Shown piece after piece: positions 138-29,129 of a stretch of 29,129 nucleotides of DNA. The notes beneath the pieces are model-generated. The model was not told the DNA's origin, made no database searches, and saw only the letters and a list, made by a program, of their open reading frames with translations. Within the stretch, counting starts at the first letter, position 1, and every line of letters starts with the position of its first letter. This DNA is from Planctomycetota bacterium. GTDB taxonomy: Bacteria; Planctomycetota; GCA-002687715; DRQF01. The DNA is taken from contig JAZGFI010000282.1 in the NCBI GenBank assembly GCA_036479435.1, forward strand, positions 1 to 29,129, written 5' to 3'. Both the position numbers and the translations under genes were made by a program.

Positions 138-932
138 TCAGTCGGTGCTCATGGTCTTGGCGGCGGCTTTCGTTAACCACGAGCGCGGGATCTTGGTTCC
201 GAGTTTGAGGAGGAGGCGGTTTCGGAAACCGGGCACGACTTGAACTTGTCCCCTTAGCAAAGCGTCGAGGCCGATCTTCGCGACTTCGGCCGCATCCATG
301 CGCTTCATGCGGTAGACCGGGCTTTGGGTCGAGTACTTTCCGGCGTCGAAAAACTCCGTGTTGGTGACGCCGGGACAAAGCGCGGTGACCCGAACGCCTT
401 GCTTGGCGACTTCGGCCGCCAAGGTCAAGCTGAAGCTCTTAAGGCCGGCTTTGGTGGCGGAATAAAGGGCATGGAAGGGCGTCGGGACGAAGGCGGCGAC
501 GCTTGCGAGGTTGAGGATCGCGCCCTCGCCGCGTTCGCACCCGGCTTCCGCAAACGCGCGGGCTAACTCCATCGGCGTTCGCAGTCCCAGTTCGACCAGA
601 TCTAAGAGTCGTTCGGGATCGGCGTCAAGGAATCGGCCGTTCATGCCAAAAGCAGCGTTGTTGATCAAGATTTCGCAGGCCTGCTCGCCGCGACAATATC
701 TTGCCAAGAGGCTTTCGCGAAAAGTCAGGTCGAGGAGATCTCCCACTTCGATGTCGACCGTGATGCCGTAGGTGCGTAGGTCTTTGGCGAGAGTCTCAAG
801 ACGATCGCTGCGCCGCGCCGTCAAGACGAGGTTGACTTTTCGCCTAGCGAGTTCCCGGGCGATGGCAGCTCCGATACCGCTGGACGCTCCAGTAACGAGG
901 GCGCGTTTTTTCTCCAACTCAAATGGAGTCAT
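138..932 (-). CDS. Short-chain dehydrogenase/reductase (classical SDR)
   Basis: TGASSGIG Rossmann motif, INNAAFG, NLAS and catalytic YSATK; ATGA overlap with the upstream gene. Confidence 0.95.
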   Translation of the reverse strand: MTPFELEKKRALVTGASSGIGAAIARELARRKVNLVLTARRSDRLETLAKDLRTYGITVDIEVGDLLDLTFRESLLARYCRGEQACEILINNAAFGMNGRFLDADPERLLDLVELGLRTPMELARAFAEAGCERGEGAILNLASVAAFVPTPFHALYSATKAGLKSFSLTLAAEVAKQGVRVTALCPGVTNTEFFDAGKYSTQSPVYRMKRMDAAEVAKIGLDALLRGQVQVVPGFRNRLLLKLGTKIPRSWLTKAAAKTMSTD

Positions 933-1471
933 CGGCGCTTGACCTCGAATGGCAACAGTTGGCAGTCGGATCTGCCGCTCAGGCGTCGTTGCGGTGCGGG
1001 TTGAGTCAAGGTCGCGGAGTCGGGTAAGGGGACACCATTCTCGTTCGAAAAAACGGCGATGACGCCGCGGCCCGGTTTGCGAAGGCTAAAAGAGGTGTCG
1101 GCACCCGGCAGTCGCCAAGGATCGCGATCATGAGTGCTCGTTAGAGGCCAGGGGAGATTCTTCGGTGCGGACAAAGGAGGGAAGAGGCGTTCCGCCGCAC
1201 CGCCAGTTTCTTCGAGTCGGTAGATAGCCAAGTAGAGCGGGCCTTCGAGCTGAACGTTGAGTTTGAAACTCTCGAGCGGATCTAGTTGTTTAAGAGAGGT
1301 GCTGGCACGAACACTTATCAGCCGAGGACCCGTGGGAGTTGGTTTGGGGTCTGGCGAGAATAGGGCGCCCAGTCCCGCGACGAGGAGCAGCAAGAACAGG
1401 CAGAAAAACGCGAAGTCCATCGGCCCTGACTTTGACCTTTTGGGCTTCAACGAGTTGGTCCTTGACGGCAT
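929..1471 (-). CDS. Membrane-anchored hypothetical protein, DUF4384-like domain
   Basis: N-terminal hydrophobic helix (FAFFCLFLLLLVAGLGALF), then a beta-rich pattern FKLNVQ..LYLAIY..GG..ERLFPP..W.LP..F.L..PG..VIAVFS reminiscent of DUF4384; operon-like spacing to both neighbours. Confidence 0.65.
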   Translation of the reverse strand: MPSRTNSLKPKRSKSGPMDFAFFCLFLLLLVAGLGALFSPDPKPTPTGPRLISVRASTSLKQLDPLESFKLNVQLEGPLYLAIYRLEETGGAAERLFPPLSAPKNLPWPLTSTHDRDPWRLPGADTSFSLRKPGRGVIAVFSNENGVPLPDSATLTQPAPQRRLSGRSDCQLLPFEVKRR

Positions 1472-1481
1472 TTCGAACTCA

Positions 1482-2285
1482 CTATATTCCGCCCGCTCGC
1501 TCGGACCGGCGAGCTTCTCGAGCGAGTTTTCGGCTCGGAAAAACGAGGGCGCGGCCCGCTTTGAGACCCTTGAACCCGCGTTCGACGACGGAGAGATAGT
1601 CGTCTCGTAAATCGACGTTTCCGGTTCTTTCGTCGGGCGCGGGTAGACAAAGAGTTGTCAGGCGAATGTTGTCGCGGCGCCACTCTTCGGCCAAGGATTG
1701 ACCGAGACTATTGAGCCAAGCTGCGACCAAGCAGGCTGAGGACCGTCCCTTCTGCGCCCGAAACCCCAGCATCGAGGACAACAAGAGTACCTTGCCCTTG
1801 ATCCCGCTGCGGCTGCTTGTGGCGAACTCCTCTCCGACTTGACGCAACAAGACCAGTGTTGCCACGACTCTGCGGTTGAAAACCTGTTCGAGCCTGTCCG
1901 GCAGAATCTTGACGACCGGCCGAGGTGCCACCCTGGCTTCGTCTCCACCCAAGCCGCATACGAGTCCCTCAATCGTGATGAGTTCGGCTGTTCTTTTGAG
2001 CACGGACTCCGCATCGCTAGGCCCCGCATCGAGCCCATTGTCAATGAGGTCGACTTGCGGTGCGCCGAGACGTTTCGCTTCGGCGGCAGCATCACGAAGG
2101 AACTTTGGTTCTTCGCCAACCAACACCAGTCGTTGTTTTCGCGCCGCCAAAGCCAAGGCCGCTGCCCGCGCTGGGCCACGACTCACGCCGACCACTAGCC
2201 AGCCGTTCGGCCGGTGAAGAGGACGACTCAACTCTTTGGCGAATAGATCGTCGTCCAGGTAATTTTCGTGTTGGGGGTTGGTCAT
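1482..2285 (-). CDS. Atypical, catalytically degenerate SDR-fold protein
   Basis: SDR layout (VVGVSRGPARAAA; GKVLLLSSMLG; WLNSLGQSLAEEW..IRLTTLCLP) but YxxxK is replaced by ACLVA. Start placed at ATG 2285 (MTNPQH); the ORF track opens at 2324. Confidence 0.75.
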   Translation of the reverse strand: MTNPQHENYLDDDLFAKELSRPLHRPNGWLVVGVSRGPARAAALALAARKQRLVLVGEEPKFLRDAAAEAKRLGAPQVDLIDNGLDAGPSDAESVLKRTAELITIEGLVCGLGGDEARVAPRPVVKILPDRLEQVFNRRVVATLVLLRQVGEEFATSSRSGIKGKVLLLSSMLGFRAQKGRSSACLVAAWLNSLGQSLAEEWRRDNIRLTTLCLPAPDERTGNVDLRDDYLSVVERGFKGLKAGRALVFPSRKLAREARRSERAGGI

Positions 2286-2537
2286 GGTCTTGAGGCATTT
2301 TGCCTCGGGCGGGCGACCACCCAAAGCCCCACTTTTTGTCTAAGCGGCTGGCGGTTCTGGATTTGCCGCAATCCGGGGAAAATTGTCGCGTCCTCGGAAG
2401 GGCTGGCTTTCGGAAGCGTAAGGGCGGGAAGAACTTACAAGAATCGCCGTCTTTGTGCGGCTCTGAGGCTGGCGGGGCGCAACTCGCCCTGCGGCGCCGT
2501 TTTCCCGCTCGCTCGCAACGCCGCGACCAACGACAAC

Positions 2538-2566
2538 TAAAAACTCGTGCCCCTTAGGGCCGATAA
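2538..2566 (+). promoter_or_regulatory. Putative sigma28 (FliA/SigD)-type promoter
   Basis: TAAAAA at 2538-2543 and a perfect GCCGATAA at 2559-2566 (spacer 15-17 nt depending on the -35 register), about 94 nt upstream of a CheX-like gene. Confidence 0.5.
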
Positions 2567-2659
2567 GGGCAAGAGCCACCGCCAGGGAAGCGGGATCGCG
2601 AGAGCGGCCGCCGCGGAGGAAAACAGATCCAAACGATCTACAGCTAGGGAGATAAGTTC

Positions 2660-3181
2660 ATGACTGCCGTCGCCACCGATTTACGCCACGATTTGGAAGA
2701 GCGTTTTGCCGCTGCGGTTCTCGAGAGTTTTCGCTCCCGGACGCAGATCGACGCCTATCGGATTTGCGTTGAAGACCAGTCCCGCCACAAAGGCCGGATG
2801 GCCACGGCCACATCGACGGTGTTTGGTGAGAATTGGTTGGGTTCCACGTCCTTGCTCATCCCGGCCGAGAGCGCACGCTGTATCGTCTTGGGTTCGAACG
2901 GTGAATTAGAAGCCATCAATCCCTCCGAGGCGAAATCGCGACCGGTGCGCGGTACGGCGGTTGCCGACGTACTTGGTGCGCTCGTGGCGTCGGCGGCGCT
3001 GAGATTCGGCGAGACTTTTCCCGGCGAAACCAAGGTGAACGTCGGGCCGCCCACCGTCGTCATTGGCGACGCTTGTTCCGTGTGTTTTCCCTGGGGCCAA
3101 CACTTCGAATCGAGGCTTTGTTTCGAAAGCGTTGCGGGACCGTTCTGGGCGATCTTGCGCTTGAGCCGAATGGACTCCTAA
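2660..3181 (+). CDS. CheX-like (CheC/CheX fold) protein with degenerate phosphatase motif
   Basis: RBS GGGAGA; CheX-like pattern F.GENWLGS.SLLIP..SAR.I, ADVLG.L, V.VGPPTVVIG, F.S.AGPFW; the canonical ExxN is absent. Confidence 0.7.
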   Translation: MTAVATDLRHDLEERFAAAVLESFRSRTQIDAYRICVEDQSRHKGRMATATSTVFGENWLGSTSLLIPAESARCIVLGSNGELEAINPSEAKSRPVRGTAVADVLGALVASAALRFGETFPGETKVNVGPPTVVIGDACSVCFPWGQHFESRLCFESVAGPFWAILRLSRMDS

Positions 3182-17758: not shown

Positions 17759-18319
17759 TCAGCTCAAAGAATCGGTGAGCCTGCGGACGCCGGAGCAAAA
17801 TACTATGAAACTTCGAGAGCAGTTGGTCGTCGGATCGAGGCGCAGGCCCATGCGTCGGGCGCCTTCGCCCTTTCGGTAATCGGGATAGAGGGTAAGCAGT
17901 TCCGAAACCGGGTTTGGCAGCGAGTCGGGATCGTTGTATTTGCTCTTGTTCATTTGCCGAGAAGCTTGGGGGCAAGAGAATTCATCTGCGAATAGGGAAA
18001 GGTCTCCAACGATCCAGGCTTCGAGCTCATGGCAAGCGACTCTTACCAAGGAATCTGGCTTGTTGGCTATCTTGCATCTGGAGACGAGACCCGCTTTGAC
18101 GGATTTGCAATCTCCATGGTCTTGGTCGCGAAGGACGACGAACTTGGTGTCGGGTGTTAGCCAAGCGCGGAGTTTTCGGCCCATTCGCTTCTCCAGGTCT
18201 TGCTTGCCTTCAAAGACGATGAATTTGCAATCCCACTGTTTCGGGAGAATTCGAGGAAGGAGACCTTGAAGGAGATTTCGCGCCGAAGGTTCTTCCAAGA
18301 GGAAGACCAGCTCAGGCAT
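17759..18319 (-). CDS. DUF4276-family TOPRIM-like protein (OLD/PARIS-type nuclease partner)
   Basis: LVFLLEEPS (conserved Glu), FEGKQDL, VLRDQD (DxD), ELEAW, N.SRSF; 8-nt overlap with the upstream ATPase. Confidence 0.85.
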   Translation of the reverse strand: MPELVFLLEEPSARNLLQGLLPRILPKQWDCKFIVFEGKQDLEKRMGRKLRAWLTPDTKFVVLRDQDHGDCKSVKAGLVSRCKIANKPDSLVRVACHELEAWIVGDLSLFADEFSCPQASRQMNKSKYNDPDSLPNPVSELLTLYPDYRKGEGARRMGLRLDPTTNCSRSFIVFCSGVRRLTDSLS

Positions 18320-19511
18320 GTGGACTAGCTCCGTCGAATAGGCCTTCTTTCCACAGGTAACCCAGTTGATCCCCTTCGGCGACCAAAGCCATGATTTGCT
18401 CGTTCTCGCTCGCCCGGTGGATAGAGGTGTAGCCTTTTTCTTTGACTAACCAGTAAACGTTGTTGGGCTTGATCGCGTTTAGGAAATCTGGCGAGTGCGT
18501 GGAGACGAACACTTGGCCGCCTCTGGCTGCGTAACTTTGAAACTCTTCGGCTAGGTCCCAAAGAAGGGTGGGGTAGAGTTGGTTCTCAGGTTCCTCTACA
18601 CAAAGCAGCGTGTGCGGATCGGGGTCAAAGAGCAAGACGAGGTAGGCGAGCATCTTGATCGTTCCGTCTGATACGAAGCGGGCCAAGAACGGGTCTTCGA
18701 AGGCGCCGTCTTGGAACTTGAGTAGGACGCGTCCTTCCTCGGTGGTCTTAGCAAGCACTTGAGTGATGCCGGGCACGCGGGACCTAAGGCGGCACAAGAT
18801 GTTCTTGAAGACTTCGGGATGCTGTTTGTGGAGGTATTCGATGACGAGGGAGAGGTTTTCGCCTTCGCGCGAGAGATGCTCGGCGTAGCCAGCTTCCTGC
18901 TCGGGGCGGGCACGGTTGATATGGAAATCTGAGAGATGCCAGTTTTCGATGAGATTGCCCAAAGCTACTGCGGCAGGAAACCTTTCGAACTGGGCCAGGC
19001 CTTTGATCGCCAGGATGTCCGAACTCTTCAAAGTTTGAGTTTCACGATTAAGTTGGGATTCGTCGTTTACGGTGTCGAGTTCATTCGTGACAGCATTTCC
19101 AACACCATTTTTGAAATCCAAGAAATGCCAAGGCTGGCCCCTACTGCCACGTCGGTACTTGAGTACTTCGCGAGCGACGAAGGGGCGTCCGTTCTTCTCG
19201 TCAATGGCAAGAGTGTAGGTGATCAAGTTTTGGGTGGGGCGCCCGAGGTCGGCCCGAATCTTGAGCTCGATTTCGATGGGGCCCTCGCAACCACGTGATC
19301 GGACTTCAGAAAAACCTCGGCTGCCGCCAATCAACCCCAGAGCGGCCGTGACATTGCTGGCCATTGCATTGCGCAAGAAGCCGAACACCGAAAACAGCGT
19401 ACTCTTGCCGCTGCCATTGGCCCCGACCAAGACGCAAAACTCGGGAAGGTCACGGAGATCGATGTCGCGGAACGCCCGGAAGTTCTTCAGGCGGATGGCT
19501 TCAATTTTCAC
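18312..19511 (-). CDS. ABC-type ATPase, AAA_21/AbiEii-like (SMC/OLD family)
   Basis: GTG 19511 with GGAG RBS; IRLKNFRAF, Walker A GANGSGKS, SDGT signature, Walker B CVEEPEN, STHS; no TM partner gene. Confidence 0.92.
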   Translation of the reverse strand: MKIEAIRLKNFRAFRDIDLRDLPEFCVLVGANGSGKSTLFSVFGFLRNAMASNVTAALGLIGGSRGFSEVRSRGCEGPIEIELKIRADLGRPTQNLITYTLAIDEKNGRPFVAREVLKYRRGSRGQPWHFLDFKNGVGNAVTNELDTVNDESQLNRETQTLKSSDILAIKGLAQFERFPAAVALGNLIENWHLSDFHINRARPEQEAGYAEHLSREGENLSLVIEYLHKQHPEVFKNILCRLRSRVPGITQVLAKTTEEGRVLLKFQDGAFEDPFLARFVSDGTIKMLAYLVLLFDPDPHTLLCVEEPENQLYPTLLWDLAEEFQSYAARGGQVFVSTHSPDFLNAIKPNNVYWLVKEKGYTSIHRASENEQIMALVAEGDQLGYLWKEGLFDGASPHA

Positions 19512-19703
19512 GGGAGGCTCCAGCAGGCATGGCCATGTTGGCTTTGGCCTCGCCCTTGCTGAGGGAAAGAGGAGCAAAGCGTCCAAGGGAGGATAGGCGA
19601 CCAAAGTGTCCTTGGCCACCCTAGTTCGCGCGGCGGTGCCAACTCACCTTGTACTGGCGTCGCGGCGAAGGTCGGCGGTGTCGATTGATGGGGCAGAGTG
19701 GTC

Positions 19704-21496: not shown

Positions 21497-21927
21497 GAGT
21501 TGGTGGTTTCGCGCAGGTGTTCGTGGGCGGCCATGAGGATTCGTCTTGAGTCATCCCATTGGAGGGTCTTGCGGGCTTCGGTCAAGCTGACCCAGCGCAT
21601 TTCGTCGTGCTCGGGCGAAATCTCGACGCGGCCCTGGGTGATTTCGGCCAATAAGTACAAGACCTCTTTGATGTGTCGCCCCTCGGCCGTTCGGACCTCG
21701 TAGCGGGTGAGCTCTTTGAAGTCGGGGTCGACTACGGGGTCGCGAAGGCCGGTCTCTTCTTCGAGTTCGCGGCGGGCGGTGCATTCTAAGGACTCGTCGC
21801 CGTCACGATGGCCCTTGGGAAAGCCCCAGGTCCCGTGGCGGGCGTTGCGAAGGAGAAGATATTGTCGTCCCTCTTCCGTGTTTCGATAAACGAGGTAGCC
21901 CGCAGCTTGTCTGATATCTTCAGTCAT
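21493..21927 (-). CDS. NUDIX hydrolase, bis(5'-nucleosyl)-tetraphosphatase (Ap4A hydrolase)-like
   Basis: AAG.LVYR, YLLL, WGFPKGH....ES...ARRELEEETGL Nudix box, KEV.Y.LAE, S.EH...RW; ATGA overlap with apt. Confidence 0.88.
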   Translation of the reverse strand: MTEDIRQAAGYLVYRNTEEGRQYLLLRNARHGTWGFPKGHRDGDESLECTARRELEEETGLRDPVVDPDFKELTRYEVRTAEGRHIKEVLYLLAEITQGRVEISPEHDEMRWVSLTEARKTLQWDDSRRILMAAHEHLRETTNS

Positions 21928-21975
21928 GAGCTGAGTGTAGCCTCAGCTGGGGTTTTCGAACCAGGAGTTCCCAAC

Positions 21976-22533
21976 ATGTTGTTGCCTCGATTGAGCCTTG
22001 TGCTGGCGTTCGCCATCTTTGCCGTCGGCTGTGCCACCCGCTCGGAGAGCGGAGGGCTCTACCGCGAAAGCGAGTCTGGGGCGCGACAACTCGCCGATTC
22101 CAAGATTCAACTCGAAACAACGGGCTCCTTTAAGCGGCGTGCCAAGGCTTCCGTGCGGACGATGTTGGCGCGAGACGGCGTGGTTCACGCCACCGTCGAT
22201 ACCGGCCAGCGGCAGGGCGAGGCGGAGATCCCGGCGGACGTCTACGCAGCGCTTTGGCGCGACCTGATGGCGGACAAGGCCATGACCTTGACCGTCGAGC
22301 CTCCTGACACTTCCGGCGGGCTCTACCACATTGTTCGCTTGACTTTGGCGGGGAAAACCGGTGAATTCAGCGGGCAACAGAAAACCAACATCTTGGGCCT
22401 TCAAAGCGCGTCGATTAGGTCGCGGCTCGAAGTTGTCAACCAGATCGCTAGGGTCTTCAATCAATACGTTGAGACCAGTCCCAAAACAAAGCCCGCCGAA
22501 AGCTCGGCAGAAACAAAGAAGTCGACTCCGTGA
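21976..22533 (+). CDS. Hypothetical lipoprotein
   Basis: AGGAG RBS, ATG 21976, signal peptide ending in the lipobox AVG-C; GTGA overlap with the next gene. Confidence 0.8.
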   Translation: MLLPRLSLVLAFAIFAVGCATRSESGGLYRESESGARQLADSKIQLETTGSFKRRAKASVRTMLARDGVVHATVDTGQRQGEAEIPADVYAALWRDLMADKAMTLTVEPPDTSGGLYHIVRLTLAGKTGEFSGQQKTNILGLQSASIRSRLEVVNQIARVFNQYVETSPKTKPAESSAETKKSTP

Positions 22534-23078
22534 CTTCGGAAAGCCCGATGACGGGGGCTTTGAAAACGGCCTTGGAGCGACGGCTCGTGGACTTGCGCCT
22601 GGTTCTGGCCGGCGTGGACGATTCTGGGTGGGCTGAGATTCGGCGCCAAATTGAAGGCGCTCGTAAGATCTACTGCGGTGGCATGGGCCGATCGGGGGTC
22701 ATCATGAGTGCCTTTGCGAATCGCCTTGCTCGCGCAGGATTTCGGGTACACGGTCTATTCGAGGCCAGCGCACCGCCGGTGGAGGCCGGAGATTTCACCC
22801 TCATCGCTTCGGGATCTGGCGCCACCGCTACGGTGCTTGCGGTAGCCGGACGCATCCAGGGCGAGGGCGCCAAGTTGGGCCTCTTTACCGCTAATGCTCT
22901 ATCGCCGATGGGACGCTTGGCGGACTTTCGAGTGGTGCTTCCGCCGCTTTTGCCGCCCCGGGATCCCTCGGCCCAAAAGGCCAGTGAGCAGGTGCTCGCT
23001 TCCCTCCAAGTCCTATTTGAGCAGGCACTGCTGATCGTCCTCGACACTCTTGCCGATCAGATCGCGGACTCTAACTAG
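22530..23078 (+). CDS. SIS-domain protein, 6-phospho-3-hexuloisomerase (HxlB/PHI)-like
   Basis: IYCGGMGRSG..MSAFANRL, GD..LIASGSGAT, TAN..SP.G.LAD, LFEQA.LI.LD. The start may be ATG 22548. Confidence 0.8.
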   Translation: MTSESPMTGALKTALERRLVDLRLVLAGVDDSGWAEIRRQIEGARKIYCGGMGRSGVIMSAFANRLARAGFRVHGLFEASAPPVEAGDFTLIASGSGATATVLAVAGRIQGEGAKLGLFTANALSPMGRLADFRVVLPPLLPPRDPSAQKASEQVLASLQVLFEQALLIVLDTLADQIADSN

Positions 23079-23233: not shown

Positions 23234-24421
23234 ATGAGCGAAGCTTTTATCGTCTCCGCAGCCCGCACCCCGATCGGCAAGTTCCAAGGCGGACTGGCGA
23301 CCACGCCGGCCACCGTTCTCGGCACCCGCGCCATTGCCGCGGCGCTCGAACGCGGCGGCGTCGACCCAAAAAGCGTTCAAGACGTCATCATGGGGAATGT
23401 CCTTTCGGCGGGGCTCGGTCAAAACCCGGCTCGCCAAGCCCTGCGCGGCGCGGGCATTCCCGATTCAGTTGGTGCGATGACGATCAACAAGGTCTGTGGT
23501 AGCGGTCTCAAGGCCGTCGCATTGGCGGCGCAGGCCATCAAGGCCGGCGACCTGGATTGCGTGGTGGCTGGCGGCATGGAGAACATGAGCCGAGTTCCCT
23601 ACCTCGCGCCGGGGATTCGCGACGGCTTGCGACTGGGGCACGGTCAGCTCATCGACAGCATGGTGCAGGATGGACTGTGGGATGTCTCCAACGACTTCCA
23701 CATGGGTATGACGGCTGAACTCGTCGCCGAAAAGTACGGCATCAGCCGCGAAGAGCAGGACGCCTACGCCTACGAAAGTCACCAACGAGCCGTCGCGGCG
23801 CAAAGCAAAGGAGCCTTCGATGCTGAGATGGTCGGTATCGAAGTCAAAGGCCGCAAAGGTGCAGTCACCCTCGTCGACAAAGACGAGAGTCCGCGCGCAG
23901 ATACCAGTGTTGAAAAGCTCGCCAAACTCAGGCCGGCCTTTAAGCGCGATGGCGGCACCGTCACGGCGGGCAACGCCCCCAGCGTCAACGACGGTGGCTC
24001 GGCCTTGATCGTTGCGAGCGGTGAGTTTGTCGAACGAGAAAACCTGAAGCCACTGGCCCGCATCACCGGCTATCAAACCGGCGGCATGGCACCTGAGTGG
24101 GTGATGATGGCCCCGGTCGATGCGGTGACACGACTCTTTGCGCGCACCGGCGACAAGATCGGCAACTTCGATCTCATCGAATTCAACGAGGCCTTCGCCG
24201 TCGCCGCGGTCGCGGTGACCCGCGAACTTGGTGCTGATCCCGCGCGCGTCAATGTCAACGGTGGAGCCGTCGCGATGGGGCATCCCATCGGGGCTTCCGG
24301 GGCTCGAATCTTGACGACCTTGTTACACGGTCTAAAAAACCGCGGCGGCAAAAAGGGCCTCGCGGCTCTTTGCCTCGGCGGTGGGAACGCCGTGGCTCTC
24401 AGCGTCGAGATGGTGGGCTGA
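23234..24421 (+). CDS. atoB: Acetyl-CoA C-acetyltransferase (thiolase II)
   Basis: [22 protein letters not shown] (catalytic Cys), [18 protein letters not shown]. Start placed at ATG 23234. Confidence 0.95.
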
Positions 24422-25767
24422 TGAAGTCAAGGATTGCGACGATCGTATTGACCCAGACCGCAGGGCAAACCAAGAGAACCGCTGCAGTCTTAAGTCTGGT
24501 TTTCTGCATGGTCTTAGTGTCGGCTTGCGATCGCCAAGCTGGCCAACCCTACGTCATCACTGGTGAGCTTACGATCAAGAGCGACTTCAACGTCGACCCC
24601 GACGAGATCAACTCTCGCGGCGGGCGCGTGAACCTCATGATGACCGTTCGCAGCGGTCCCAACATCGGCGATGTCCTGGTACAACGCCGCTGGATAGGCA
24701 TCGGCAGCCGCCACCACTTTGGCTTGGGAAAAGGCGATGACATCGTCACCCGAATTAAAGCGAAAACAGATCGCATTTATGTCACGGCTTTACTTGACGT
24801 CTACGATCGCGGTGGTGAACGCATCACCCGTTCCTACGTCGGTTGGACCCGCGACGCTCTCCCGGTGGGCAGCGACAACTTAGTCTTAGAAATCGACAAT
24901 GCCTACGGTCAAGCCGACCCTCGGAAGGTGAAGAACTTTCCGGTCGGAGGCTGGTATTCACCCTCCGCGACGGAAGAGGCACCGCCGCCCGGAACGGCGC
25001 AGATCAATCCTGGTGCTCGCGCGTTTTCAGGGACGATCGATGTTCCTGAAGACCTGCGCTATGCCTTTCGGCAGTTTGTGCTTTACGTCGGCGCCGGCGA
25101 TGACGCCAAGGCGACCCGCGAATTCAAGGTGCGGGCTCGCTACGACACACCGAGCTTTCCCCTGAATTTCTCGCTGCACCTCAATCAAACTGCGAGCAAA
25201 GGCTCCAAAGTGATCGAAAATCCCAAGCTTGTCGTGGCGATCTTGGATTTCGACGGCAACCTCGCAACGGCGCAGGATCAATGCCGCGTCTCAACCCCGG
25301 CGCCAGTGGCACCGGGCACCACCGACATCAAGCTTATGATCGACCCGCGCAAGATGCTCGAGTTCATCATGAAGCGATCTTCTCCCGCAGGCGGCGAGAA
25401 AGCGCCTCAGAAAATCGATGCGTCAAAGGCGCGATCGGTCACGAAGGGACGCATCGAGTTGGCTGACGAACTGAAAGCTATGGTGTCCGGGAAGACGACG
25501 CTGTGGCTAACCGTACGCGATGCCGCGAGCGATGCTTTGGTCCTCGTGAAGAAACTTAGCGCGGAGTTTCCGCAGGACTTTGAGTTGAGGGAGACCGACA
25601 CGATGAGCGGAGCTGCCATGCGCGTCGAGGGCGCTTTTCGCATCCGCGCGACGTTGACGGACGGTGACCCATCGGGAAGCGACCCCAATACCATCAGGGT
25701 GACCTCGGACGTCATCCCCGGGGTTGGAGCGACGGGAATTGTGATTCGCCTCGAAAAGAGCAAATAG
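24421..25767 (+). CDS. Putative lipoprotein with three tandem CcmI/CycH-C-terminal (YbaY-like) Ig-type domains
   Basis: TGATG coupling to the thiolase; lipobox LVSA-C at residue 36; three roughly 110-aa beta-rich repeats. Confidence 0.7.
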   Translation: MKSRIATIVLTQTAGQTKRTAAVLSLVFCMVLVSACDRQAGQPYVITGELTIKSDFNVDPDEINSRGGRVNLMMTVRSGPNIGDVLVQRRWIGIGSRHHFGLGKGDDIVTRIKAKTDRIYVTALLDVYDRGGERITRSYVGWTRDALPVGSDNLVLEIDNAYGQADPRKVKNFPVGGWYSPSATEEAPPPGTAQINPGARAFSGTIDVPEDLRYAFRQFVLYVGAGDDAKATREFKVRARYDTPSFPLNFSLHLNQTASKGSKVIENPKLVVAILDFDGNLATAQDQCRVSTPAPVAPGTTDIKLMIDPRKMLEFIMKRSSPAGGEKAPQKIDASKARSVTKGRIELADELKAMVSGKTTLWLTVRDAASDALVLVKKLSAEFPQDFELRETDTMSGAAMRVEGAFRIRATLTDGDPSGSDPNTIRVTSDVIPGVGATGIVIRLEKSK

Positions 25768-25797
25768 AAAACCGACAAGAACGCAGAGGAGTCTGGC

Positions 25798-26658
25798 ATG
25801 AGTATTTCGAAAGTCGCCGTGATCGGCGGCGGGACGATGGGGAACGGCATCGCGCAAGTCTTCGCGATGAAGGGACTCCAAGTCGCCTTGGTGGATCAAA
25901 AACCTGAGTTCCTCGACCGCGCGAAGGCCACGATCGAAAAGAACATGTCCCGGGTCGTCAAAAAGGGCAAGTTGGATCAGGCCGAAGCCGACCAGGCTCT
26001 GAGGCAGATTCGATACACCACGGATCTCGGCACTTGCGACGGCGTCGATCTGGCGATCGAAGCCGTCTTCGAGAATTTCGAAGTCAAAGCTGACATCTTC
26101 CGCAACCTCGACAAAACCCTGGCGAAGGGAGCGATCTTGGCGACCAATACGTCGTCGATTTCGATCACCCAGTTGGCGGCCGTCACCGAGCGCCCGGGCC
26201 AAGTCATCGGTATGCACTTCATGAACCCGGTGCCGATCATGAAGCTGGTCGAGGTCATCCGCGGTGAAGAGACGAGCGACGAAACCAACGCTGCGGTGCT
26301 CGCGGCCTGCGAAATCCTGGGCAAAATCCCTTGCGTTGCGAACGACTATCCCGGTTTCGTGGCGAATCGCATCTTGATGCCGATGATCAACGAGGCGGCC
26401 TTCGTGCTCATGGAAGGCGTTGCGACTAAAGAGTCGATCGACAACATCATGAAGCTGGGCATGGCCCACCCGATGGGCCCGCTGGCTTTGGCGGATTTCA
26501 TTGGACTCGACATCTGCCTCGATATCTTGAATGTGCTTCACAGTGGGCTGGGCGACCCCAAGTATCGCGCTTGTCCTTTGCTGAAGAAGCTCGTCGCGGC
26601 GGGCCACCTCGGTCGAAAAAGCGGTCGCGGGTTTTGCGACTATCGCGAACAGGCTTGA
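25798..26658 (+). CDS. hbd: 3-hydroxybutyryl-CoA dehydrogenase
   Basis: [62 protein letters not shown]. Confidence 0.96.
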
Positions 26659-26666
26659 GGTCGACT

Positions 26667-27812
26667 TTGGACTTTGCACTCGACGAAAAATTGCTCGCTC
26701 GACAGGCCGAAGCTCGCGCTTTTGCCCGCGATGAAGTGGCGCCAGGTGCAGCCGAGCGCGACCGCAAAAAGGAGTACCCTGAGAAGTTGGTGCGCCGTGC
26801 GGCGGAACTCGGCTACATGGGATGTCTCGTGCCCGAAAAAATGGGCGGCAGCGGATTGGGCAACCTCGGCCAATGCGTCGTTTTGGAAGAAGTGGCGGCA
26901 GCCTGCGCCGGAACCCACGTTACTTTGAGCGTGCACAACTCGCTCGTGTCCGCGCCGATCTACAAGTATGGCGGCCCTGAGGTTCATGAGCGTTGGCTCG
27001 GTGCCGTTGGCAGCGGCGAGAAGCTTGGCTGCTACCTGCTGACCGAGCCCGGCAGCGGCAGTGATGCGGCCGCGATGAGCACCACCGCGACCGAAGACGG
27101 CGATTACTTTGTCATCAACGGCGACAAGATGTGGATCACCACGGGTGATGTCGCCCAGGTCGGCGTTGTGTTTGCGATTACCAATTTGGACCGTTCGGTT
27201 CGGAACACCAAAGCGATCTCGGCTTTCGTTATCGACTTTGACGACCCGGGCGTGACTTTTGGCAAACGCGAACCCAAACTCGGGCTGAGAGCGAGCACCA
27301 CGGTGGCGGTCTTTTTGAAAGACGTGCGGGTACATAAATCACAAATGCTCGGCGAGCGCGACCGCGGATTCAGTATCGCCATGGATATGTTGAACGGCGG
27401 ACGCATTGGCATCGCAGTCCAAGCCATCGGCATTGCGCGCGCGGCCTTAGAGTTGGCGCTCGAACGGTCCGAAATCTCCAAGCGTAACGGCAAACCCTTG
27501 GGGAAAAGCCAACTGGCGCGCTTTAGAATGGCCGAAATCGCGACGTCGATCGAGGCCTCGAGGCTCTTGGCCTGGCGCGCGGCCTTATTGCGAGATCGCA
27601 AAGAGAATCACATCCGCGAGGCGTCGATGGCAAAACTCATGGCGACGCAATCTGCGAACGATGCTTGTCGTCGGGTGGTCGAGCTTTTGGGAGAGGCTGG
27701 CTACAGCGACGACTGCGCAGCAGAACGGCTGATGCGGGACTGTCGCGTTACCGAACTCTACGAAGGAACAACCGAAGTTCAGAAACTCGTGATCTCAAGG
27801 CAGCTGTTGTGA
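26667..27812 (+). CDS. Acyl-CoA dehydrogenase (subunit carrying the catalytic Glu)
   Basis: TTG 26667 with GAGG RBS; LTEPGSGSDA, NGDKMWIT, KLGLRAS.T, LNGGRIGIA, ELYEGTTEVQ. Confidence 0.93.
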   Translation: MDFALDEKLLARQAEARAFARDEVAPGAAERDRKKEYPEKLVRRAAELGYMGCLVPEKMGGSGLGNLGQCVVLEEVAAACAGTHVTLSVHNSLVSAPIYKYGGPEVHERWLGAVGSGEKLGCYLLTEPGSGSDAAAMSTTATEDGDYFVINGDKMWITTGDVAQVGVVFAITNLDRSVRNTKAISAFVIDFDDPGVTFGKREPKLGLRASTTVAVFLKDVRVHKSQMLGERDRGFSIAMDMLNGGRIGIAVQAIGIARAALELALERSEISKRNGKPLGKSQLARFRMAEIATSIEASRLLAWRAALLRDRKENHIREASMAKLMATQSANDACRRVVELLGEAGYSDDCAAERLMRDCRVTELYEGTTEVQKLVISRQLL

Positions 27813-27843
27813 ATCGGATCGCTACAAACAACGAGGCCGCGAA

Positions 27844-29034
27844 ATGACGGACTACGGCGAGTATCTGGGGCTCGACCTCGACGAAGATCAAAAGATGATC
27901 CTCGAAATGGTCGCACAGCTTAGCTCTGAATTGCTGGCTCCTGCGGCGGATGTGATCGATCGCGATGAAGCGATACCCGCCAACGTGCGCGCGACCTTGG
28001 CGGAGTCCGGACTTTTTGGCCTTCGAGCCCCGGAGACTTTTGGCGGCGTCGACTTGGATGACAGTTGCTATCAGTTTTCCTTGGCAACGCTCGCCCACGG
28101 GTCGGCGTCCGTGGCGCTCGACGTGTTGGTTCAGTCCTCGTTGCTGTTGGAGCCGCTAGCCAAGTTCGCGCTCGACGATGAGGGGATTTCGGCCTGGGCC
28201 GAGTCCGTGGTTTCGGGTGAGGCGCGCGGTGCTTTGGCTTGGCAAGAATCTTCGAATTCGTTGAGCAATTCCGACCTCAAGACTGAGTTAAGAACCATCG
28301 ACGGAGAAATCCAGCTAAGCGGCGTCAAAAACTGGGTCTTAGGTGCTCCTGAGGCCGATCGTTTTTTGGTCTTGGCGAAAGAGGGTGACTACTCCTCTTG
28401 GTTCATGGTCGCCGCGGACGCCGCGGGCGTTGAGATTGGAAAAAAGCGAACGCGACTCGGCATGCGCGGAATCTCCGTCGCCGCCGTCGAGTTCACCAAC
28501 GTCGCCATCGCCGAGTCGAATCGCATCGGCACCGTCGGTAATGGGAAGGAGATTCTGGAGTTTATCTCCTGTCGCGCCCAAGTTGGTTTGGTGGCCCTCG
28601 CAACCGGGTTGATCGCGGCCGCGCGCGATGCCGCCGCTCAGTACGCTACTGAACGCCGCCAGTTCAAACGGCCGATTGCCGATTTCGAGGCGATCCGCGA
28701 AAAGCTCGCTGGAGCCGAATCCGCCCACGCGAGCGCTGCGAGTCTTCTCGCCAGTTGCGCTCGTCTTTCGGATGGAGGAGGGGGCCATGATCGAAAACGT
28801 CTCCACTTCGGGATGGCGGCTCGCATTCAAGCGACTGATCTCGCCATGAAGGTCGCCGACGACGCCCTTCAGACTTTTGGGGGCTATGGATATAGCCAGG
28901 AGTATCCCGTCGAGCGGTTTTACCGCGACGCGCGGTACCTAGCCCTCGCTTTTGGTGGCAACGACCCCATTCGCCTGCGTTTGGCACGTTCCATCCTGCC
29001 CTCCAGCGATTCCGCATCGAGAAAAAGTGACTGA
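27844..29034 (+). CDS. Acyl-CoA dehydrogenase-family protein lacking the catalytic Glu
   Basis: ACAD layout (PETFGG, SGVKNWV, RLGMRG, YATERRQF, ALQTFGGYGYSQEYPVERFYRDA), but YEGT is replaced by AFGG and LTEPxxGSD by WQESSNSLS. Confidence 0.9.
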   Translation: MTDYGEYLGLDLDEDQKMILEMVAQLSSELLAPAADVIDRDEAIPANVRATLAESGLFGLRAPETFGGVDLDDSCYQFSLATLAHGSASVALDVLVQSSLLLEPLAKFALDDEGISAWAESVVSGEARGALAWQESSNSLSNSDLKTELRTIDGEIQLSGVKNWVLGAPEADRFLVLAKEGDYSSWFMVAADAAGVEIGKKRTRLGMRGISVAAVEFTNVAIAESNRIGTVGNGKEILEFISCRAQVGLVALATGLIAAARDAAAQYATERRQFKRPIADFEAIREKLAGAESAHASAASLLASCARLSDGGGGHDRKRLHFGMAARIQATDLAMKVADDALQTFGGYGYSQEYPVERFYRDARYLALAFGGNDPIRLRLARSILPSSDSASRKSD

Positions 29035-29129
29035 GGCGAACCTCCCGTAACCCTCATTTCGAGGCCGTTTTCAACGACTTTTGTTTCGTCGTAGACAAAA
29101 AGCAAATTCGCATCCACTTTGATCTAGAT

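Follow-up and report, generated by a model that had tools for sequence, protein, structure and literature searches.

The 29,129-nucleotide window analysed here is contig C282 of a Planctomycetota genome (G000) and carries near its end two adjacent genes for acyl-CoA dehydrogenases (ACADs), which we named acdA and acdB. Their products, AcdA and AcdB (A and B), appear to hold complementary halves of a site for flavin adenine dinucleotide (FAD), and there are good grounds to think, from their sequences and a predicted complex, that they form an obligate heteromeric, probably α2β2, short-chain ACAD in which each heterodimer holds a single FAD and a single active site. Since each chain has lost the opposite half of the flavin site, AcdA and AcdB likely work only as a pair. 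Such a heteromer had been put forward in the initial annotation of the window because of reciprocal motif loss, and both open reading frames as well as every motif named there were recovered as follows, with counts for orthologues and for intact relatives of AcdA, called acd1:

26667..27812, + strand: acdA, predicted catalytic (alpha) subunit similar to short-chain acyl-CoA dehydrogenase (SCAD) and butyryl-CoA dehydrogenase (Bcd), 381 amino acids, TTG start; best solved match rat SCAD (1jqi), 344 bits
27042..27065, + strand: AcdA flavin-ring loop TEPGSGSD, residues 126-133, retained; T, E, G, S and D in 19/19 orthologues
27126..27140, + strand: AcdA flavin-ring strand KMWIT, retained; W156 and T158 in 19/19
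27477..27491, + strand: AcdA RxxF half-site lost, reads SKRNG; F in 0/19 and R in 5/19, both in 36/36 intact acd1
27681..27701, + strand: AcdA QxxGGxG half-site lost, reads ELLGEAG; Q and second G each in 0/19 but in 36/36 intact acd1
27762..27764, + strand: AcdA Glu366 (GAA), putative catalytic base of the MCAD/SCAD type by alignment to SCAD Glu368; 19/19
27844..29034, + strand: acdB, predicted non-catalytic (beta) subunit with full ACAD fold, 396 amino acids; model pLDDT 92.4, top folds short-chain-type ACADs
28243..28266, + strand: AcdB flavin-ring loop decayed, reads QESSNSLS; ring score 0-3 of 5 in 21/21 orthologues
28651..28665, + strand: AcdB ERRQF, ADP half-site of FAD, retained; R, Q and F in 21/21; predicted contact with AcdA 132-133
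28870..28890, + strand: AcdB QTFGGYG, FAD pyrophosphate half-site, retained; Q, G, G and G in 21/21; predicted contact with AcdA 363-370
28951..28953, + strand: AcdB Phe370 (TTT) in the catalytic Glu column, read from the sequence; Glu in 12/21 orthologues

Complementary half-sites of AcdA and AcdB

The best alignments of AcdA are those with rat and human SCAD (344 bits). They place AcdA Glu366 on SCAD Glu368, within a YEG motif at residues 365-367, and show the ADP-contact segments replaced, as RHAFG of rat SCAD aligns with SKRNG and QILGGMG with ELLGEAG. The CoA-binding Arg is also retained in AcdA, and Gly245 occupies the helix position of the IVD/LCAD-type base (19/19). AcdB has Ala in that IVD/LCAD column and none of its 21 orthologues has Glu there, as had been claimed. 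The proposed replacement of the catalytic Glu by Phe holds for AcdB of the source genome but not for its family, since 12 of the 21 orthologues keep the Glu (as G-E) despite the loss of the ring motifs in all of them.

The order to which the source genome belongs is represented by 23 genomes. B was found in 22 of them and A in 21 at the threshold, to which one truncated at the edge of a contig in G019 is added, so that single-copy A and B co-occur in 22/23; in the remaining genome, G003 (81% complete), neither A nor B was found. Close AcdB homologues carry the source names Planctomycetes or Planctomycetota. The ring residues and Y-E-G are invariant in all 19 aligned A, from which Phe, Gln and the second Gly of the ADP half are absent, and R-x-Q-F and Q-x-x-G-G-x-G are invariant in all 21 B, each with a decayed ring loop. 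A lack of conserved complementary loss in orthologous pairs had been set beforehand as refuting the proposal, and the loss is conserved. Chance was rejected as its cause, as no exception to the motif pattern occurs in 19/19 A and 21/21 B. The genes are 31 nt apart in G000 and 0-17 kb apart in the order, and B is still an open frame where it lies 4-17 kb from A. AcdB is under purifying selection, with dN/dS of 0.07-0.32 in five of six pairs and saturation in the sixth; with the open frame maintained and dN/dS low, a pseudogene was rejected. One AcdB, at L050 (G019) 1949-3050, appears split over two overlapping frames by a frameshift or an assembly error in this one genome.

The conservation of the interface, as defined by the predicted complex, follows the same division. 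In AcdA it amounts to 0.87 for the ring half and 0.56 for the ADP half (protein mean 0.67), in AcdB to 0.39 and 0.79, respectively (mean 0.49). Intact relatives conserve both halves, with ring against ADP values of 0.81 vs 0.81 in acd1 and 0.83 vs 0.70 in its intact partner, acd2. Hence, conservation in A and B tracks only one composite site. As a side observation, one more position behaves in a complementary manner, namely Gln282 of AcdA (27510-27512), which all 19 A keep and B has lost. A hint of co-dependence among the intact pairs, of which 13/28 lack this Gln in one partner and none in both (about 1.4 expected), is not significant.

The predicted complex of A, B and FAD reached an ipSAE of 0.92, a score that covers the A-B heterodimer and not the placement of FAD, and the best of three controls reached 0.00; the mark applied is reached by 116 of 157 solved pairs and by 2 of 215 mismatched ones. 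The runs agree in at least 95% of contacts, with a partner pLDDT of at least 90. The surest predicted contacts join A 132-133 with B 273-274 and A 363-370 with B 343-349, and in the model these are the one complete FAD site, in which the ring side of A faces the motifs kept by B. Alone, AcdB models as a complete ACAD (pLDDT 92.4), and its nearest structures are short-chain-type enzymes. Conserved complementary loss, half-site-specific conservation and the predicted interface thus all support the proposed heteromer with one FAD site per heterodimer.

In such an enzyme, the acyl-CoA and the flavin ring would sit in AcdA, and AcdB would clamp the adenosine and pyrophosphate of FAD. Glu366 of AcdA would take the alpha-proton, the hydride would then go to FAD, and the electrons would pass to an electron transfer flavoprotein (ETF) encoded elsewhere in the genome; ETF genes are present in G000. 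The second, symmetry-related site would be empty.

Origin of the two subunits and alternative explanations

AcdA was searched in 251 genomes of the phylum, of which 97 matched, 85 of them outside the order, and the loci of 65 of these 85 were examined. Most show thl-hbd-acd1, followed by meaB, acyl-CoA mutase genes and finally acd2, neither ACAD being decayed. The identity between intact acd1 and acd2 is 41-55%, and judged by their sequences the two are old paralogues rather than fresh duplicates. The subfunctionalisation invoked in the initial annotation therefore has to be recast, as it would start from two long-separated paralogues, each of which survives intact elsewhere, and the one leading to B seems to be the first to lose its catalytic half. 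A falls among the intact acd1, and the PimC-like (G030) and steroid-cluster (plasmid pNL2) alphas form a distant clade; the known family was represented here by the pNL2 and G030 pairs as stand-ins. For A, the proposed derivation from short-chain/Bcd-type ACADs apart from ChsE/PimCD is well supported by these comparisons. B most likely descends from acd2, whose position in the operon it occupies. Its profile score is higher for acd2 than for acd1 in 28 of 29 decayed B, and a tree constrained to unite B with acd2 gains likelihood (+11.5, p-AU 0.785 in the approximately unbiased (AU) test). Two intact paralogues of a thl-hbd-acd1-meaB-icmA-icmB-acd2 operon would first co-assemble, acd2 would lose its catalytic half, and acd1 would then lose the half-site now supplied by acd2; such loss would have occurred at least twice in the phylum.

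Both genes are found in 58 genomes. Of these, 30 have both intact and 25 both decayed; acd2 alone is decayed in three (G039, G044 and G073) and acd1 alone in none, counts that overstate the case as kin among the 58 are not independent. From this distribution, B seems to lose its catalytic half first. On a tree of hbd and acd1 without the trait columns, the decayed state needs five changes, two of them forced by starred branches. AU tests were run on 28-row subsets with the trait columns removed and motif state used to delimit the decayed pairs. A single clade uniting all of these pairs was rejected by hbd and acd1 together (p-AU 0.0003 under LG+G4, 0.0001 under a mixture model) and by acd1 alone (0.028), and therefore at least two origins of the decayed pair in Planctomycetota, apart from the steroid-degrading examples, are likely on these trees. 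More than two origins are not claimed, since a nine-row main group was rejected by the concatenation (p 0.018 and 0.004) and not by acd1 (0.525) or hbd (0.12), and this group was named after seeing the tree. A further origin may lie at L069 (G225) 789-3092, where an acd1 with a decayed ADP half-site is sister to an intact one and the contig ends before acd2.

Several observations weigh against this account. The tetrameric state is assumed from the family, and ACAD homodimers have already been solved, so that the good score of the complex may reflect likeness to them. The one B that scores higher on the acd1 profile (227 against 220 on acd2) is that of G000 itself. In trees, 13 of 27 B sequences placed singly (27 of 30 were placed) fell sister to known betas, the free mixture tree groups B with known betas (support 64), and hbd alone does not reject a single clade of decayed pairs (p 0.17). 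The frequent position of B next to known betas could mean that the heteromer is as described while AcdB stems from the known ChsE/IpdE2/PimD betas, so that the alpha subunit alone would be new. We consider this very improbable. Long-branch attraction is expected for B in trees, and all 29 decayed B score higher on intact acd2 (mean) than on the best of four known-type betas. The bit scores of AcdB (P0002) are 174 for AcrC, 64 for PimD (TIGR03203, cut-off 653) and 27 for IpdE2 (NF050027, cut-off 450). Furthermore, a control beta has the solved beta Tcur3481 as its top match, which comes 54th of 60 structures for the B profile, in whose ranking 6wy8_A stands 54th and 4x28_D 58th; the constraint result and the operon position speak for acd2 as well. 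The short-chain-type origin proposed for both subunits is thus favoured for B by profile and pairwise scores and left open by the trees with their long branches.

It is similarly hard to believe that AcdA acts as a homomer whose FAD site has been remodelled and weakened, with AcdB as a pseudoenzyme that serves apart from it as a scaffold or regulator. All catalytic residues are retained in A, A and B are not always adjacent, and ACAD folds with non-catalytic roles exist, such as ACAD9, an annotated complex I assembly factor among the structure matches. However, the ADP-half interface of A lies below the average of the protein and carries no new conserved motif, exactly the half missing in A is conserved in B, and a decayed A beside an intact acd2 occurs in none of the 58 genomes. 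Less remote but still unlikely is a single origin of the heteromer in Planctomycetota, followed by transfer or replacement by intact genes, which would make the parallel origins only apparent. The backbone of the tree is poorly resolved, decayed B cluster in FastTree, and one clade is compatible with hbd alone, as is the nine-row main group with acd1 alone. Against it stand the rejection of a single clade by acd1 and by the concatenation, the intact A of G044 that lies inside the second group, and a putative alpha-like plus beta-like pair derived from other paralogues in G303, outside the phylum.

Gene neighbourhood and substrate

The genes around acdA and acdB in the window are the following:

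23234..24421, + strand: thl, acetyl-CoA C-acyltransferase (thiolase), ATG at 23234; TIGR01930 455 bits, cut-off 240.55
24370..25767, + strand: passenger gene between thl and hbd, lipoprotein-like with Ig_CycH-like domains, 465 amino acids; Atlas feature score 0.91 to PF23892 clusters, a lead only
25798..26658, + strand: hbd, 3-hydroxybutyryl-CoA dehydrogenase, stop 8 nt upstream of acdA; PRK05808 416.7 bits, cut-off 408
29003..29129, no strand assigned: end of a repeated element comprising the last nine codons and the stop of acdB; 15 copies in G000, 12 of them at contig ends, depth about 20-fold higher

The thiolase-hbd operon described in the initial annotation is thus present, with thl, hbd, acdA and acdB on the + strand, but the 465-amino-acid lipoprotein gene intervenes between thl and hbd. 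This passenger gene had no Pfam or NCBIfam match; its family is about 450 amino acids long, and one further genome of the order gave a short match. The repeated element breaks the contig, and the operon genes downstream of acdB therefore lie outside the window. An assembly error was rejected, since two further runs on one sample gave contigs that agree with 25700-29032 at every position. A scan of promoters and terminators gave matches at chance level. An unknown lipoprotein-like gene and a SIS (HxlB-like) gene at 21808-23078 precede thl in many relatives including distant families. Farther upstream, a pair of an AAA_21 ATPase and a DUF4276 gene lies at 17759-19619 on the - strand, a layout found in defence-type modules.

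Butyryl-CoA oxidation is on balance the likeliest job of the enzyme to judge from its sequence and context; butyryl-CoA or a similar short straight chain would feed hbd and the thiolase, and an isobutyryl-CoA mutase would act upstream. In 24 operon loci, the two specificity sites of the mutase are occupied by Phe and Gln, presumably the mark of isobutyryl-CoA mutase. At these sites, methylmalonyl-CoA mutase has Tyr and Arg (PMC7238569). No icmA was found in the decayed loci examined, and G000 has an IcmF-type open reading frame elsewhere. At G000:C174:26459-34253, an IcmF-type fused mutase is directly followed by methylmalonyl-CoA mutase subunits, and the repeated element of the acdB end also occurs at the start of contig C174. 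AcdA matches SCAD at Val85, Val89, Ile249 and Tyr365, which correspond to SCAD Val90, Val94, Ile251 and Tyr367 and which we take to be positions of the substrate pocket.

Beside the pocket, however, His84 (26916-26918) is found in 17/17 A of the order against Gly in 36/36 intact acd1, and this order-specific Gly84His change may have shifted the substrate, a further point against our account. The heteromer might then use another substrate than butyryl-CoA, for instance a branched C4-C5 acyl-CoA inherited from the dead acd2 site, which we regard as rather doubtful but worth reckoning with. In its favour are the invariant His84, the loss of the Gly-Glu type acd2 activity from the operon and the lack of icmA in the decayed loci examined, and on the other side stand the SCAD residues shared by A, the score of hbd above the cut-off for 3-hydroxybutyryl-CoA dehydrogenase and the IcmF-type frame in G000.

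Related pairs and comparison with known systems

A search with the B profile gave 146 new representatives, of which 63 are single-chain and beta-like, many of them <45% identical to any Planctomycetota B; two of the beta-like proteins are named from Longimicrobiales and Deltaproteobacteria. Moreover, there are natural two-domain ACAD fusions of 740-800 amino acids, in either order of the domains, whose halves are both intact at one extreme (P0122) and fully complementary at the other (P0147, P0138, P0143, P0166, P0211), so that they include the same complementary loss as AcdA and AcdB. Further fusions are P0123, P0127, P0133, P0134, P0136, P0141 and P0232, and the names of the fusions include Cyanobacteria, Ardenticatenia and Helarchaeota. 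Descent of the fusions from this pair was rejected, as they fall outside the acd1 clade and are therefore analogues. In G303, whose phylum is that of a Myxococcota record, meaB is preceded by a beta-like gene whose 13 closest relatives, those of P0248 in the Myxococcota group, are intact. This genome also has an unlinked alpha-like gene before a mutase gene (the two unlinked alpha-like and beta-like ACADs lie at C54:239464-240597 and C105:15706-16842). G265 likewise has both alpha-like and beta-like ACADs (loci L341, L344 and L346). These genes adjoin mutase, meaB or hbd genes in both genomes, and the alpha-like and beta-like proteins may pair there. A genome scan of 79 loci gave no beta-like match and one alpha-like neighbour (L183), and a metagenome scan of 80 loci gave intact or truncated relatives only, so that neither collection yielded another pair. 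Operons of thl-hbd-acd-acd-mutase are also found in Bacillota and Myxococcota.

In the literature covered, split-site ACADs have been treated as an architecture specialised for steroid catabolism. The short-chain clade would now offer this architecture too, built around another catalytic base and apparently on more than one occasion. The value of AcdA and AcdB lies mainly in the survival of their ancestors and intermediates, which together with the fusions would form a natural series on how obligate heteromers evolve from homomers through neutral loss and entrenchment. Tentatively, we find it plausible that the intact acd1/acd2 pairs of Planctomycetota, Myxococcota and Bacillota already form mixed two-site heterotetramers that repeatedly ratchet one way into obligate one-site heteromers. 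If this is true, split-site ACADs would have emerged repeatedly throughout the family instead of being peculiar to steroids, and the models of many annotated 'homotetramers' would be wrong. Expressed without its partner, each gene would seem to encode a dead enzyme, and beta-like chains are easily mis-annotated as active enzymes or pseudogenes.

Both subunits are closest in sequence and fold to the homotetramers SCAD, butyryl-CoA dehydrogenase and Bacillus MmgC, and AcdA shares with SCAD/Bcd the YEG catalytic motif and the short-chain pocket residues, with His84 as a difference. However, each chain of SCAD, Bcd or MmgC carries both half-sites, which neither AcdA nor AcdB does. In the steroid α2β2 ACADs, alpha binds the isoalloxazine and the substrate and holds the Glu, beta binds the ADP part, and there is one FAD per heterodimer (PMC11153573, PMC8399759). 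AcdA and AcdB would share this division of labour with ChsE1-ChsE2, ChsE4-ChsE5, IpdE1-IpdE2, Tcur3481/3483, Scd1AB and ScdC1C2, and as in ChsE, IpdE and PimCD the two ACAD genes lie in one operon. PimC-PimD, the large and small subunits of pimeloyl-CoA dehydrogenase, are an adjacent pair suggested to be heteromeric (bioRxiv 10.1101/2025.02.21.639450). AcdA scores 99 bits on PimC (TIGR03204, cut-off 624), AcdB likewise falls short on PimD, and AcdA is distant from this pair in the tree. A PimC/PimD-like pair with complementary loss was found at L130 (G030) 343-2682, the only such match in 151 phylum genomes at E <= 1e-70. A non-steroid heteromeric ACAD complex, as AcdA and AcdB would form, is M. 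tuberculosis FadE23-FadE24 by its description (PMC11980559). In the literature covered, no report of a short-chain or Planctomycetota split-site ACAD was found, a weak negative as the primary ChsE/IpdE and ACAD-evolution papers lay outside that coverage.

Unlike the steroid ACADs, AcdA and probably AcdB belong to another ACAD clade, and the two have no steroid genes near them and still have surviving intact ancestors and intermediates. The neighbours of the acdA/acdB type are thl, hbd, meaB and acyl-CoA mutase subunits instead of a steroid or dicarboxylate context. Among the alphas examined, those of the steroid cluster carry E-R-G in the helix column and lack YEG (in the alphas of pNL2 and G030 this column reads E-R-x, likewise without YEG), whereas the putative base of AcdA lies in the C-terminal YEG. 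ChsE2 and ChsE4 presumably use the IVD/LCAD helix position for their catalytic Glu. By their sequences, AcdA and AcdB would thus work like ChsE, IpdE and PimCD but fall outside these in the position of the Glu, the family profiles, the clade of the alpha subunit and the gene context.

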